Origin: an uncultured bacterium | GTDB lineage: Bacteria; Patescibacteriota; Minisyncoccia; UBA6257; 2-01-FULL-56-20 | Direction of reading: 5' to 3' | Length of the DNA: 64,000 nucleotides | Assembly (NCBI GenBank): GCA_963707865.1 | Contig: OY970175.1 | Span: 396,305 to 460,304 of the forward strand | Translations under genes and position numbers: made by a program | Part shown: positions 9,324-12,324 of the stretch, one piece after another | How the letters are laid out: every line of letters starts with the position of its first letter | How positions within the stretch are numbered: the stretch's first letter is position 1 | Notes under the pieces: generated by a model | What the model was told of the DNA's origin: nothing | Seen by the model: the letters and a program-made list of their open reading frames with translations, nothing else | Database searches by the model: none

Positions 9324-10247
9324 ATGATAACGATGAATACCACATCGATTACATCCATCACCGAAGGACAGAAAGAACTTTATGAACGCGTCGTCCGCGA
9401 TGCCGCGAAACACGGCACCGCGCTTGCGCTCCAGAAGACCGGCGCTGACCAGATCGGCTGGCAACGCGTCATTGAAAACGGTGACGACCTCCGCGAAGCA
9501 ATCGCGGCGACCATCGTGGCCAGAACAAGGGAACTCTCGCTTTCCAACCAGTTTGCAAACGAGGAAGTGAAATCCACCTACGGCTATCCCAGCGGCTACG
9601 CGCCGAAGCCGATCGAAGCGCAGGTTGCTATCCTGCGCGAGATCTGGCCGAAGCTCAACATCGGCGGCTGGGTCGCGCAGTTTGAACGCGCGGTCGCTCC
9701 CGGCGCCGAAGCACATTTCGTGATCGTCCGCTGGCAAGCGCTCGCGCCGTCCTACGGCGAGGGGTTGGAGAAGGAGCTGTTCCCCGCGCTTCGCGCGCAA
9801 CGGAACGGCACTTTCTACAACTACCGCAATGGCGAACTCGGCCCCGAGCAGCTGCGGCAGCACGAACGCACCATTCGCATGTTCGCGAAGTTCGATGCCG
9901 ACCAGCCTGGCGATGTACTCATTGTCTCGGCCCAGCTCGGCCTCCGTCACCGCGGACGTTCGACACGTCGGGCACATGAGGTGTTCGTCGTAAACGAGTT
10001 TGGTCTCGGCGCATTTCATGTCGGCTGCATCCTGCTGACTCACCCCGAGCGGGAAGTCCAATGGGAACAGCTCCATATGGATTGCCCCGGCGACGAATTC
10101 AGTCCGAGGGCGGATGGCCAGTTCTCGCACGCGCCGTACTTCGGCTTCGGCGACGTCAGGCTCAAGTTCAACGCCCACGGCGTGGGCTATGCTGGCGGGT
10201 ACTGTGGCTCCGCGTCCGCGCTGCTTCCGCAGTATCTGCAACCTTGA
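9324..10247 (+). CDS. DGR variable (target) protein; C-terminal ~45 aa encoded by the variable repeat (VR)
   Basis: A GGAGG motif lies 7 nt upstream of the ATG. The 3' 130 nt form a near copy of a downstream template repeat and differ from it only at positions that are adenine in the template. Confidence 0.7.
   Translation: MITMNTTSITSITEGQKELYERVVRDAAKHGTALALQKTGADQIGWQRVIENGDDLREAIAATIVARTRELSLSNQFANEEVKSTYGYPSGYAPKPIEAQVAILREIWPKLNIGGWVAQFERAVAPGAEAHFVIVRWQALAPSYGEGLEKELFPALRAQRNGTFYNYRNGELGPEQLRQHERTIRMFAKFDADQPGDVLIVSAQLGLRHRGRSTRRAHEVFVVNEFGLGAFHVGCILLTHPEREVQWEQLHMDCPGDEFSPRADGQFSHAPYFGFGDVRLKFNAHGVGYAGGYCGSASALLPQYLQP
10104..10233 (+). repeat. DGR variable repeat (VR)
   Basis: It aligns to 10717..10846 with no gaps. 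All 18 mismatches fall at TR adenines, mostly at codon positions 1-2 of TR AAC codons. The last 24 nt are identical and GC-rich, consistent with the IMH region. Confidence 0.8.
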
Positions 10248-10716
10248 ACGCTTGGATGCTTGGGACTTTTTATTCCCTTATCTTCTTGATCCCTTGCATT
10301 CGCGCAAGTTTTTTTCCAGGGGCTTCCGCACATTCATCATTCATCGCGGCGGCCCCTTTCTCTTTATATATTTAATGATGTTCACGATCCGTGATTTTTC
10401 TGCTATTCTTCTTTCGGGTCTAGGCCAATGCGCGGCCGTTCCGGTTCATGGCACTTGCCAACGGGATCGCCGTCGCCGAACCCTCTCTTCATAGAGAAGC
10501 AGCCAGAGTCCGGGCGATCATAATGGTTTCCCGGAGCGTGCCGCATTGGGGAGATACTGCTTGCTTTTGCCTAGTGCGGGTGTCCTGCGGAAGCGCGGGA
10601 CTGCCGCCGGATGAAATTCAGGGACCAGAGGATATACTTGGCTCCTTTTGAGCGGAAAACCTCAAGTCCCGGTGCTCAGAGATAGTTGCCCGTTGTGGAT
10701 GGGCGGAAGCAATATT

Positions 10717-10846
10717 CCGAAGGCGGATGGCCAGTTCTCGAACGCGCCGTACTTCAACTTCAACGACGACAAGCTCAAGTTCAACACCAACGACGTGGGC
10801 AATGCTAACGAGAACTATGGCTCCGCGTCCGCGCTGCTTCCGAAGT
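10717..10846 (+). repeat. DGR template repeat (TR), rich in AAC codons
   Basis: It is the adenine-rich partner of the VR. For example, TR ttc aac ttc aac gac gac aag corresponds to VR ttc ggc ttc ggc gac gtc agg. Confidence 0.8.
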
Positions 10847-10856
10847 CGCTTCCCAA

Positions 10857-10886
10857 GAGCAATGCCCCGACCTCGGTCGGGGCATT
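10857..10886. terminator. perfect 14-bp hairpin (gcaatgccccgacc tc ggtcggggcattgc) between TR 3' end and avd 3' end
   Basis: This inverted repeat was read directly from the sequence. It lies between convergent features and could act as a bidirectional terminator or as a structural element of the TR RNA. Confidence 0.5.
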
Positions 10887-10889
10887 GCG

Positions 10890-11237
10890 TTACTGCTTCA
10901 CTGAACGGATCCATCCGCCGAGCATCCGACCAACCTCGTCAATCGGCTCCTGAAACGCGAGGTATTTCTTCTGGTCGATGCCATCCGTCTCACGCATGAG
11001 CCGAATGAAGATACGGAGGAAATTCAGCTTCACGCTTGTTTTCTCCAACACGGAAAGCTTTGTTGCCTTCGGCATCTGGCTCGCTGCCATGATACCCTCG
11101 AGGATGTCTAGGATCATGCCGTCGCACCGCTGCCAAATCGTATAGCGATCCTGCTTCGAAATGAGATTGCGGTAGCTATAAAAGAGCTTGTAGAGATCGC
11201 ACGTCTTCTTGAAAATCGGGATGTCAAAATCGTCCAT
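10890..11237 (-). CDS. avd: Avd-like accessory variability determinant (four-helix-bundle protein family)
   Basis: A 115-aa basic helical protein (IWQRCDGMILDILEGIMAAS...KLNFLRIFIRLMRE) sits between the TR and the RT, on the opposite strand. Confidence 0.6.
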   Translation of the reverse strand: MDDFDIPIFKKTCDLYKLFYSYRNLISKQDRYTIWQRCDGMILDILEGIMAASQMPKATKLSVLEKTSVKLNFLRIFIRLMRETDGIDQKKYLAFQEPIDEVGRMLGGWIRSVKQ

Positions 11238-11249
11238 AGTATTTTATCC

Positions 11250-12324
11250 ATGAAAGTTTATCGCGACCTTTTCGGGAACATTATATCGCCGGAAAACCTG
11301 TTCAATGCGTGGGACGCGTTCAAGCAAGACAAGCGGAACAAACTTGACGTGGCTCGTTTTGAGCGGCACCTCGAGGAGAACATTTTCCAACTGCACCGCG
11401 ACCTCAAAAACAGGACGTACCGTCACGGCCCGTACGAAAGCTTCTATATCCACGATCCGAAGCAGCGGCACATCCATAAAGCGACGGTGCGCGACCGGAT
11501 TTTGCATCACGCCGTGTTTGCGGTCATCAATCCAATCTTTGAGGAAACGTTCATCCCGACCTCGTTCTCCTGTCGCGTCGGCTATGGAACCCATCGGGGC
11601 ATCGATAGCGCGGAAAAGATGCTGCGCTATGCCGATCTCCGTGCGCCACGGGGATCCTTCGCGCTCAAATGCGACATACGGAAATTCTTCGACAGCGTGG
11701 ACCACAACATCCTCATCTCCATCCTCGGAAAGAGGATAAAAGACGAGGACGCGATGTGGCTCCTGCGTTCTATTATTGAAAGTTATCCGGCCGCGCCAGT
11801 TCAGAGAGAGAGAGAGAGAGAGAGAGAGAGGAGTAAACCCGTGGCCGCGCAAGGGAATACCCATAGGGAACCTTACCTCGCAGCTCTTCGCGAATGTTTA
11901 TATGAACGAGTTTGATCGGTTTGTGAAACATGATTTGAAGGTGAAGCAATACGTCCGTTATACCGATGACTTCATGATTGTGAGCAATGACCCCGAATAT
12001 CTTGAGAACCTTTTACCACGGATCAGTGAATTTTTGAAGAGGTTGGCGCTCGACCTGCATCCGAAGAAAATCACGCTGCGACCGTTCCGCCAGGGTATTG
12101 ATTTCCTGGGTTATGTGGCGTTTCCCCATCACCGCCTCGTCCGCACGAAAACGCGCCGCCGGATGTTCAAAAAATTCAGGATAGCCATCTCCCGCTTTCG
12201 CGCGGGAGAAATCTCGAAGGAACGCCTCGAAGCGTTGCTTTCGTCCTACCTCGGCGTGCTGTCGCATGCGGATGCGATCCGATTGGCGGAGAAAATGAAA
12301 AATCTGATTTGGTTTGCGGATTGA
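11250..12324 (+). CDS. DGR-type reverse transcriptase, interrupted by a frameshift inside an (AG)14 tract (N-part 11250..11915, C-part 11776..12324)
   Basis: The N-terminal part carries RT motifs 1-3 (FSCRVGYGTHRG...FDSVDH). The C-terminal part carries motif 4 (GIPIGNLTSQLFANVYMNEFD) and the catalytic YTDD box. The two halves lie in different frames and join within the dinucleotide repeat. Confidence 0.7.
11803..11830. repeat. (AG)14 dinucleotide microsatellite inside the RT gene
   Basis: This is a perfect 28-nt AG tract, and both RT reading frames translate through it as RERERE. Changing the tract by one unit up or two units down would fuse the two RT halves. Confidence 0.9.

Follow-up and report, generated by a model that had tools for sequence, protein, structure and literature searches.

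Organization of the locus

The window, by which we mean the whole 64-kb stretch of DNA that was analyzed, contains a target (variable-protein) gene, an intergenic template repeat (TR), an avd accessory gene and two coding parts of a reverse transcriptase (RT), adjoined by a gene for a large serine recombinase (Table 1).

Table 1. Positions of the features of the locus, numbered from the first nucleotide of the window
Feature	Position	Strand	Remarks
Target (variable-protein) gene	9324..10247	+	307 aa
Variable repeat (VR)	10103..10233	+	last ~43 codons of the target gene
GC-rich VR/TR-identical stretch, IMH-like 3′ end of VR	10205..10229	+	25 identical bases
Terminator-like hairpin and T-run after target gene	10293..10315	+	consensus scan; function putative
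Promoter-like site	10611..10638	+	consensus scan, 9/12 matches; not above shuffle expectation
Template repeat (TR)	10716..10846	+	intergenic; 33 A's, 7 in-register AAC codons
Perfect 14-bp inverted repeat	10859..10888	.	2-nt loop; between TR end and avd stop codon
avd accessory gene	10890..11237	-	115 aa; divergent from RT
RT, N-terminal coding part	11250..11802	+	frame 0, residues 1-184: fingers, motifs 1-3; ORF 11250..11915
(AG)14 simple-sequence repeat breaking the RT frame	11803..11830	+	TRF: 14.0 copies, 100% match
RT, C-terminal coding part	11831..12324	+	frame +1; ORF 11776..12324; thumb
Large serine recombinase	12462..13811	+	Resolvase, Recombinase and Zn_ribbon_recom domains; adjoins RT

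The VR, which occupies the 3′-terminal part of the target ORF, and the noncoding TR, 613 nt downstream, align without gaps over 131 nt with 18 mismatches, and at all 18 the TR base is an adenine (18 of its 33 adenines are used; hypergeometric P = 1.7e-13), while not a single non-adenine difference is present. Read in the frame of the target gene, the TR comprises, besides the AAC codons, AAG, AAT, GAC and others, and every substitution falls in codon position 1 or 2. These data bear out an earlier note on this DNA, which had described a gapless pair with 18 differences, always A in the template, and an AAC-rich TR substituted in the first two codon positions. The same note had given the last 24 nt as identical, whereas the identical stretch spans 25 nt (GGCTCCGCGTCCGCGCTGCTTCCG plus the base before it) and is followed by an A-to-C difference at position 10230, the homology being gone past 10233. 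By analogy with the DGR of phage BPP-1, this stretch may function as the IMH; no hairpin was found immediately after the VR besides the terminator-like one at 10293. The 64 kb contain no second VR for this TR, only the single matching one. Two related VR alleles (L242 and L243) differ from that of the window mainly at the same TR-adenine positions, and an assembly break inside the VR was seen.

The target protein is helical/alpha-beta in its N-terminal region and C-type-lectin-like in its C-terminal domain. Structure prediction, which the earlier note had suggested for the C terminus, modeled the C-terminal half as a C-type lectin (CLec) fold, and the variable residues are predicted to sit on this scaffold. 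A Foldseek search against the PDB returned weak matches only, the target family profile matched no PDB sequence, the N-terminal ~190 residues gave no match, and a comparison with Pfam revealed no similarity to known DGR variable proteins. By Pfam/PDB profile search the target shows no sequence similarity to Treponema denticola TvpA or other CLec-fold DGR proteins, and it also differs from them in having no lipoprotein or secretion signal; a signal peptide was not evident either, as the note had stated. The closest target homologue (P0125) is 85% identical, and its contig ends before the TR and RT. None of the target, recombinase and PBP proteins was on record when looked up by exact sequence.

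The Avd assignment made in the earlier note was checked with hidden Markov models (HMM) and agreed with Pfam bAvd (E = 7e-15; 55.9 bits, above the gathering cut-off of 40), while the score against NCBIfam DivGenRetAVD was slightly below its cut-off of 80 (E = 2.5e-20; 72.7 bits). The start codons of avd and RT lie 12 nt apart on opposite strands, and this divergent layout was present in 82 of the 83 related loci with a detectable Avd. The promoter-like site is located ~78 nt upstream of the TR, in the 468-nt noncoding spacer 10248-10715, and is a weak candidate for a TR-RNA promoter. The inverted repeat downstream of the TR pairs in the predicted RNA fold of positions 10640-10900; it may mark where the avd mRNA ends or form a structure within the TR RNA. 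A search of the whole window with Rfam indicated nothing within the DGR.

Among solved structures, the best relative of the RT is Bordetella phage BPP-1 bRT (8ub7_A, E = 1e-48), while group II intron RTs matched more weakly, at about 1e-20 (2.6e-20), and the scores against NCBIfam group II, Drt and retron models were all far under their cut-offs. By these scores the RT is nearer to bRT than to group II intron RTs; a clustering with group II intron or retron RTs had been named in the earlier note as speaking against its reading. Judged by its sequence, the locus is a genuine diversity-generating retroelement (DGR), in which error-prone reverse transcription rewrites the end of one protein, since VR and TR mismatch at template adenines only, Avd is recognized by HMM, the RT is nearest to bRT and the target gene carries the VR at its 3′ end. 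Likewise, its relationships indicate that it is chromosomal and belongs to a clade found in CPR (Patescibacteria) bacteria: the homologues of its RT, Avd and target all come from Patescibacteria MAGs, and, as in the cellular DGRs of CPR/DPANN, reportedly treated by Paul et al., the cassette is compact and resides on a chromosome (the source contig measures ~0.9 Mb).

The element shares with the BPP-1 DGR (mtd-VR, avd, TR, brt) adenine-only TR/VR differences, a CLec-fold target whose gene bears the VR at its 3′ end, an Avd, and an RT with IGxxxSQ and YxDD motifs. Unlike that of BPP-1, it is not phage-borne, its avd is on the strand opposite to the RT, its TR lies beyond the avd 3′ end rather than between avd and RT, and its target has neither a signal peptide nor a tail-fibre context. 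Taken as a plain DGR, this locus is ordinary.

The RT frame is broken by an (AG)14 tract

The earlier note had called the element a complete DGR with a YTDD-containing RT. The YTDD box is indeed present (11959-11970), as is GIPIGNLTSQ (11854-11883), but the RT is not a single ORF: its two overlapping ORFs are in different frames, and the shift occurs within the (AG)14 tract, so the element as assembled is not complete. This repeat, which the note had overlooked, is the most unusual feature of the locus and the only dinucleotide repeat of at least five units in the window. The N-terminal part aligns to bRT residues 3-172 and matches the RVT_1 and group-II-RT HMMs, and the C-terminal part aligns to residues 169-315 and matches RVT_1 (1.3e-12). 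All motifs are retained in the two parts and no further stop interrupts them, the tract being the sole lesion. The tract encodes a surface loop immediately ahead of RT motif 4; this loop is ~24 aa long compared with ~6 aa in bRT.

The tract is uninterrupted and 100% pure, and its number of units sets the RT frame: the gene is in frame at n = 12, 15 or 18 and out of frame at n = 13, 14, 16 or 17. With n = 15 a 358-aa and with n = 12 a 356-aa RT is encoded; the RT repaired by one extra unit aligns end to end with intact homologues, of which there are thousands. The window allele (n = 14) is OFF: because the frame is broken at the tract, no full-length RT is made by ordinary translation, and the N-terminal ORF ends at a stop 85 nt past the tract (11915).

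This was the single full allele found for the element itself. A Logan contig (L001), which may share the sequencing run, is identical over window positions 10755-11829 and ends inside the tract. Scanning of metagenome contigs with the element's own tract flanks gave 0 matches, and none of the RT products predicted for n = 10-19, that of n = 14 included, was found in a collection of 15 billion proteins. In the nearest relatives of the window (Avd 88-90% identical), the tract is present and out of frame (36 nt in L364 and 23 nt in L366), and three short-read contigs end inside it.

The repeat occupies the same site in many CPR and DPANN RTs

In the tiny-celled CPR bacteria and DPANN archaea, at least 120 species-representative genomes were found to carry pure (AG)n tracts of 14-71 nt at this RT position. 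Of 114 repeat-bearing genome loci, only 24 were in frame, 22 with an intact RT, and 90 were out of frame, with offsets +1 and +2 equally common (48 versus 42). In about 20 of the best 120 RT homologues, runs of (RE)2-6 were present exactly at the tract site. As a control, we used an unbiased metagenome sample picked by RT motif 4, in which all 95 RTs without the repeat and none of the 11 with it were in frame; the latter comprised eight AG tracts and three poly-G tracts (G9-10) at the same site, and the repeat occurred in 9 of 24 close RT relatives. The share of in-frame genes was 0/8 for the metagenome AG-tract loci versus 95/98 for all others (P = 5e-10, Fisher's exact test), and 24/122 for all AG-tract loci versus 95/98 for those without an AG tract (P = 1e-34). 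The presence of the repeat at one site across homologues is beyond chance; flanking DNA totalling 825 kb contained a single further dinucleotide repeat of six units or more. Viral DGR RTs are entirely without the repeat: 109 of 111 were in frame, and (AG)7 or G9 followed by motif 4 had zero matches across the whole IMG/VR collection. Taken at the sequence level, these findings suggest that a putative switch, (AG)n or in some lineages poly-G, is retained at this position in a considerable fraction of the DGR RTs of CPR and DPANN.

If the RT were a pseudogene and the DGR a fossil, the repeat, as the most mutable site, would have been the first to break. The window allele, which cannot encode an RT, would fit such a course, as would the further lesions of some relatives (a second frameshift in L082, an in-frame TAG in L098 and L120), which likewise speak against the switch. 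The cellular, Patescibacteria-only DGR clade 2 also displays a lower-than-average apparent activity (Roux et al. 2021, PMC8144416), an observation that counts in favor of an on/off switch as well. However, apart from the tract the RT of the window is undamaged, and its VR/TR pair shows no non-adenine difference in 131 nt. Among the 79 out-of-frame loci that no contig end truncates, both RT halves were stop-free in 75, hence these RTs are not decaying genes. The repeat is pure and in place across RTs that are 35-70% identical and come from two domains of life, and poly-G has arisen there as another type of repeat. We consider a dead element improbable.

Length alleles and the quality of the assemblies

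Length polymorphism between ON and OFF states was observed directly in relatives. In L373 and L374 the tract is 31 nt long and the RT (357 aa) is intact, and in L371 and L372 the tract is 29 nt long and the frame is broken, with 0 mismatches between the two pairs over 997 nt. Similarly, L098 and L120 are 4.86-kb contigs identical but for one AG unit.

It might be argued that the real RT is intact and that the out-of-frame lengths are consensus errors of sequencing or assembly at a difficult repeat. Repeats are prone to error, contigs frequently break off within the tract, several loci derive from very low-coverage or long-read assemblies, and 9 of the 11 out-of-frame metagenome alleles are one unit short, which is the direction of PCR stutter; since our assembly coverage figures cover ~11 loci, some out-of-frame calls could be such errors. 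On the other hand, the genome set is balanced in direction, single Illumina reads and assembler k-mers reach across tracts of 14-35 nt, and the 29-nt and 31-nt alleles were each recovered in two independent assemblies. Moreover, RTs without the repeat from the same kinds of assembly were in frame in 97-100% of cases, and a consensus error rate of 80% would be far above known stutter rates. An artefact of this kind is, in our opinion, quite improbable as the explanation of the data.

Alternative roles of the repeat

In-frame alleles (24/122) are rarer than the one-third expected from neutral slippage (P = 0.001); the switch hence needs either an extra assumption, i.e., selection for OFF, or another mechanism. 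One such mechanism would be recoding, in which RNA polymerase slippage or ribosomal frameshifting on the purine tract yields full-length RT at a low level whatever the frame of the DNA, and the repeat throttles expression instead of being inherited as a switch. The shortage of in-frame alleles, as if an in-frame gene were disfavored, the intact state of both halves in out-of-frame alleles, and a TAA or TAG in the out-of-frame register directly after the tract in 30 of 114 loci are compatible with this possibility. Against it, the offset is inconsistent, intact in-frame alleles do exist (22 loci and many homologous proteins), and no conserved frameshift signal was identified. Furthermore, transcriptome-wide data from E. 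coli and Buchnera speak against slippage on AG or G tracts: insertions were seen only in A/T runs, G/C runs were "not prone to slippage" and GA/AG dinucleotides were disfavored for deletions (PMC5574713). Recoding therefore seems unlikely to us, though less so than decay or artefact.

Three other candidates were rejected. A programmed frameshift of fixed direction was ruled out, because offsets +1 and +2 are equally common. An RT split into two polypeptides by internal initiation was discarded, as 39 of the 90 out-of-frame loci have no start in the C-terminal frame before motif 4, and a start codon after the tract is present in only 24 of the 90. Nor does the RT contain an intron or insertion element: beyond the repeat there are only a few extra codons, and the reading frame of in-frame alleles runs straight through.

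On the sense strand every tract, whether (AG)n or Gn, consists of purines only, which counts against the switch and could point to a role at the nucleic-acid level. The homopurine tract might then serve as a polypurine-tract-like primer, form an R-loop or H-DNA, or bind a protein within the RT mRNA or the DGR RNA, and the changes of frame would be a side effect. Small hairpins with UUCG-type loops, which flank the tract in some lineages, could also be taken in this sense. Yet the tract lies ~1 kb from the TR, inside coding sequence, its length ranges from 14 to 71 nt, Rfam finds nothing there, and many close RT relatives and all viral DGRs do without it, while the purine bias can also be explained by a protein loop that tolerates runs of RE or Gly. 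Among the explanations considered, this one seems to us the hardest to credit.

A proposed hypermutable switch of the mutator enzyme

The best reading of the data is, with a probability of roughly 0.6, that the locus is a DGR of a known kind to which a hypermutable repeat switching the RT on and off has been added. According to the BPP-1 paradigm, the TR would be transcribed, and RT and Avd would copy its RNA to cDNA with misincorporation opposite adenines. The cDNA would then replace the VR, diversifying ~14 residues on the C-type-lectin face of the target. The (AG)n tract would act as a contingency-type simple-sequence repeat, in which slipped-strand mispairing in replication gains or loses AG units; one unit more or two units fewer than in the window would restore the RT. 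A minority of cells would in this manner be switched ON for targeted hypermutation, and a later return to OFF would freeze a useful VR variant. The odds appear to us about even that, across CPR/DPANN, the repeat is such a heritable stochastic switch, which is mostly OFF, slips ON and upon relocking freezes a receptor variant ("mutate, then lock"). Such a phase-variable mutator would be a second-order evolvability device and, as a genetic regulator of DGR activity, the first to be described.

Simple-sequence-repeat contingency loci occur in Neisseria, Haemophilus, Campylobacter and Mycoplasma, and include phase-variable methyltransferases ("phasevarions"). The DGR RT resembles them in its pure intragenic repeat whose unit number sets the frame, in the use of poly-G as an alternative repeat type, in the conservation of the repeat across homologues, and in the natural ON and OFF alleles whose lengths differ between otherwise identical sequences. 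It differs in that the switched gene encodes a mutator enzyme, the hypermutation RT, instead of a surface structure or a restriction-modification enzyme, and in its hosts, which are CPR bacteria and DPANN archaea. The repeat is also located mid-gene, whereas most classical phase-variable genes have it near the 5′ end, and this counts against the switch.

We know of no dedicated regulator of DGR mutagenesis, and DGRs are unusually common in CPR/DPANN; if our reading is true, toggling of the RT frame would be a simple genetic answer to DGR control in these organisms. It could also explain the lower apparent activity of the Patescibacteria DGR clade in population surveys (PMC8144416). The accessible surveys make no mention of a repeat or frameshift in a DGR RT, and an earlier mention in Paul et al. 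2017 is possible. Since ~80% of repeat-bearing RTs are split into two ORFs, pipelines that need an intact RT ORF will under-count or mis-annotate such DGRs. The idea is directly testable by comparing tract-length alleles in existing reads with VR diversity.

A search for att-like repeats linking the cassette's left edge to the recombinase or to tRNA-Glu found none. Homologues of the recombinase (53-64% identity) adjoin repeat-bearing DGR RTs in four other loci (L053, L011, L049 and L154), and it is possibly part of a mobile unit.

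A diversity-generating retroelement with all its parts

The locus had been read from its sequence as a diversity-generating retroelement (DGR), and this reading was correct: all the parts are present (cf. Table). The variable repeat (VR) and the template repeat (TR) align without gaps over 131 nt and, as had been claimed, all 18 differences between them correspond to an A in the TR, which means that 18 of its 33 adenines are substituted in the VR (P 1.7e-13 for 18 differences all at A positions). Read in the frame of the target gene, the TR contains seven AAC codons together with AAG, AAT, GAC, and similar codons, and each difference falls at codon position 1 or 2 and therefore alters an amino acid. 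The stretch described as 24 identical nucleotides at the end of the repeats turned out to be a GC-rich identical block of 25 nt, which is followed by an A-to-C difference at 10230, and homology is lost beyond 10233. No second VR for this TR was found within the 64-kb window. The VRs of two related loci, L242 (target 85% identical) and L243 (ENA k141_1628137; a close target homologue), differ from that of the window mainly at TR-adenine positions. The 3' end of the L243 contig breaks within the VR and terminates in an Illumina adapter (AGATCGGAAGA), an assembly artefact in the public record. The target protein matched no Pfam family, and its 534 homologues, conserved in the body and variable at the C-terminus, all derive from CPR bacteria and are all unnamed. 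The fold of this C-terminus, previously called unknown, is predicted to be CLec-like. The 468-nt spacer between the target stop codon and the TR is without a convincing gene and holds two terminator-like hairpins and a weak promoter-like site.

The ORF noted as Avd-like was identified as the accessory protein Avd by Pfam (bAvd, E 7e-15, over the gathering score), while its match to NCBIfam DivGenRetAVD (E 2.5e-20) was slightly under the cut-off. After repair of its frame, the reverse transcriptase (RT) was closest, among solved chains, to 8ub7_A (E 1e-48), confirmed as the brt protein of Bordetella phage BPP-1 (bRT), whereas group II intron and retron-type RTs scored about 1e-20; this upholds its assignment as a DGR-type enzyme, and it carries the expected YTDD box as well as an IGNLTSQ sequence at motif 4 (IGxxxSQ). 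The avd and RT genes diverge on opposite strands with start codons 12 nt apart (11237/11250), a layout present in 82 of 83 related loci with detectable Avd (start codons about 5-20 nt apart), 16 of which also have the target family of the window upstream. Since the two starts lie so close, each promoter must be located within the other gene or further upstream, and one possibility is a transcript running through the TR, antisense avd, and the RT. The DGR itself is of a known kind: it belongs to the cellular clade of CPR/DPANN, in which avd is divergent and the target has a CLec fold.

Coordinates of the features of the DGR locus and its surroundings
Feature	Position	Strand	Remark
Gene downstream of LOOT RNA	7899..8891		
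LOOT RNA (Rfam)	8892-9006	-	85.6 bits, full length
Target gene	9324..10247	+	307 aa
VR	10103-10233	+	last ~43 codons of target ORF
GC-rich identical block	10205-10229		25 nt
Spacer	10248-10715		target stop codon to TR
Terminator-like hairpins	10293, 10382		in spacer
Weak promoter-like site	10611-10638		in spacer
TR	10716-10846		intergenic; ungapped match to VR
avd	10890..11237	-	
RT, first ORF	11250..11915	+	
RT, second ORF	11776..12324	+	different frame
(AG)14 tract	11803-11830		within RT
GAGTAA	11831-11836		directly 3' of tract
Large serine recombinase	12462..13811	+	directly 3' of RT
tRNA-Glu	13928-14005	-	after recombinase

An AG tract breaks the reading frame of the RT

The earlier note called the element complete, but its RT is not a single ORF. 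The frame shifts within a perfect (AG)14 tract that the note had overlooked; no other dinucleotide repeat in the 64-kb window reaches five units. With the 14 units of the assembly, translation stops 85 nt beyond the tract; 15 or 12 units would encode an RT of 358 or 356 aa, which can be aligned over its full length with thousands of intact homologues, 340-360 aa long (69% identical at best, and those with a name being Patescibacteria). The tract lies in the loop before motif 4, which comprises about 24 residues in the window RT vs about 6 in bRT. Over 10755-11829 the window is matched without a difference by Logan contig L001 (run ERR10755942), which ends in the tract; therefore, the tract is real, although ERR10755942 may itself be the source of the genome. 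The GAGTAA sequence that follows the tract is read as G/R-V-N in the intact frame, while one of the broken frames stops there at once; a TAA or TAG, out of frame, stands directly 3' of the tract in 30 of 114 genome loci among the matches listed.

The tract recurs at one site in CPR and DPANN genomes

Runs of (RE)n, two to six copies long, occupy the same loop in about 20 of the best 120 RT homologues. One genome per species was then scanned for (AG)7 followed, after a gap of 9-39 nt, by back-translated P-x-G-N-L-T-S-Q, which revealed at least 120 loci. Those listed belong nearly all to CPR bacteria (labelled Saccharibacteria, Wolfe-, Berkel-, Doudna-, Uhr-, Paceibacteria, and others) or DPANN archaea (Woese-, Pace-, and Nanoarchaeota), and their tracts are all pure AG of 14-71 nt. 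Both halves of the RT could be located with tblastn in 114 of the listed loci; relative to the N-terminal half, the C-terminal one was in frame in 24, offset by +1 in 48, and by +2 in 42. All but two of the in-frame loci (22/24) read through to a full RT, the remaining two having a further lesion, while both halves were stop-free in 75 of the 79 out-of-frame loci that were not truncated by a contig end, so the repeat is their only lesion. The number of units in a pure repeat hence sets the frame of the RT, and such repeats are conserved at one site. The listed loci, 825 kb in all, contain only one further dinucleotide repeat of at least six units, a (CT)8 in the RT of L053 (991-1006), which immediately precedes the (GA)14 tract.

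Decay of the RT into a pseudogene is contradicted by these data, as the halves are intact, pure tracts persist across RTs only 35-70% identical, and the VR and TR of the window show zero non-adenine differences. Recoding, in which polymerase or ribosome would slip on the tract, appears improbable: there is no fixed offset, intact in-frame alleles exist, and in the transcriptomes of E. coli and Buchnera slippage insertions were seen only in A/T runs, G-rich dinucleotides being disfavoured (PMC5574713). Independent translation of the C-terminal half was also considered and is not a conserved option. The sense strand is purine in all tracts, which would suit a role of the homopurine tract at the nucleic-acid level, a minor possibility.

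Several loci had further peculiarities. Contig CAVRXN010000002.1 carries two separate DGR RTs (L043 and L112), neither of them in frame, with AG tracts of 14 and 17 nt, and in L082 the N-terminal half of the RT contains a second frameshift. In some lineages, labelled Berkelbacteria, Saccharibacteria, or unclassified Patescibacteria, short hairpins flank the tract (L004, L019, L024, L032, L052, L065, L070, L102, L109, L119), for example gattttcgaagcgaaaatc upstream and cggccttcggccg, with a UUCG-type loop, downstream; they are translated in in-frame alleles and might promote slippage.

Broken frames coincide with the repeat

As a control blind to the repeat, RT genes were sampled from metagenomes by motif 4 alone, giving 120 loci, 106 of them with both halves. 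All 95 repeat-free RTs were in frame and all 11 repeat-bearing ones were out of frame. The latter comprised eight AG tracts (16-31 nt) and three poly-G runs at the same site, just upstream of motif 4 (L149, L218, and L231, with G10, G10, and G9); therefore, a second repeat type arose there. Among the 98 metagenome loci without an AG tract, no other RT was out of frame. Within this sample, a repeat was present in 9 of the 24 RTs that share at least 50% identity with the N-terminal half of the window RT. When viral sequences in IMG/VR were searched with motif 4 alone, 109 of 111 RTs were in frame among the matches listed, and neither (AG)7 nor G9 combined with motif 4 had any match in the whole of IMG/VR. 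Thus, a broken frame goes together with the repeat, which in turn goes with cellular CPR/DPANN elements. To account for the repeat state on a neighbour-joining tree built from 251 RTs takes at least 14 changes; gains or losses of the repeat have been numerous.

Natural alleles differ by unit number alone

Intact and broken alleles with the unit number as their sole difference were found in nature. In the P0004 cluster of RTs, one member of which is annotated as Ryanbacteria, the tract measures 31 nt and the 357-aa ORF is intact in L373 (JGI 3300002105) and L374 (ENA ERZ28563557), while in L371 and L372 (ENA ERZ27254743 and ERZ27254763) the tract measures 29 nt and the frame is broken; over 997 nt compared, L372 differs from L373/L374 by zero mismatches and one 2-nt gap. 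A single AG unit is likewise the sole difference between the 4.86-kb contigs L098 and L120, obtained from two co-assemblies of one study, though position 1111 of this RT has an in-frame TAG in place of a conserved Lys, and the enzyme may be dead or stop-codon-recoded. Two Wolfebacteria loci with 90% identical flanks have tracts of 71 vs 35 nt, and the nearest relatives of the window by Avd (88-90% identical), L364 and L366, have tracts of 36 and 23 nt, both out of frame. Three short-read contigs terminate within the tract. Ends of this kind, at RT residue ~190, are seen repeatedly (L001, L367, L368, and a 17-kb ENA contig), as would be expected of reads that differ in tract length.

Assembly error is unlikely to account for the roughly 80% of broken frames. 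Few loci have a known coverage, and tracts in the metagenome sample tend to be one unit short; against random errors of this kind, however, stand the controls, the similar numbers of +1 and +2 offsets among the genomes, and the 31-nt and 29-nt alleles, each recovered twice.

Proposed switching of the RT

Slipped-strand mispairing at replication would alter the tract length, as in classical contingency loci, and this change would turn the RT, and hence adenine mutagenesis of the VR, on and off. Among the listed loci, in-frame AG-tract alleles (24/122) are scarcer than the neutral one-third (P 0.001), which fits a "mutate, then lock" scheme: once a cell has a useful VR, loss of RT activity would benefit it, so samples would usually be dominated by the broken genotype. 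Such a scheme would also fit the lower-than-average activity of the Patescibacteria-only DGR clade (PMC8144416). In the full-text literature and DGR surveys that were searched, Paul et al. 2017 not being among them, we found no link between DGRs and simple-sequence repeats, RT frameshifts, or phase variation, and as far as we could find the RT repeat is undescribed.

Genomic neighbourhood

The window is chromosomal and carries dnaE, a PBP, mraW, and an aminoacyl-tRNA synthetase. Recombinases homologous to the one next to the RT (53-64% identity) adjoin repeat-bearing related DGRs in L053, L011, L049, and L154, which suggests that some cassettes move together with a recombinase. A search for att repeats around the DGR and recombinase of the window found none. 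The closest relatives of the element lie in different gene neighbourhoods. On the other side of the DGR, a LOOT RNA stands just upstream of its neighbouring gene; the gene for the DGR target is about 320 nt away from this RNA.
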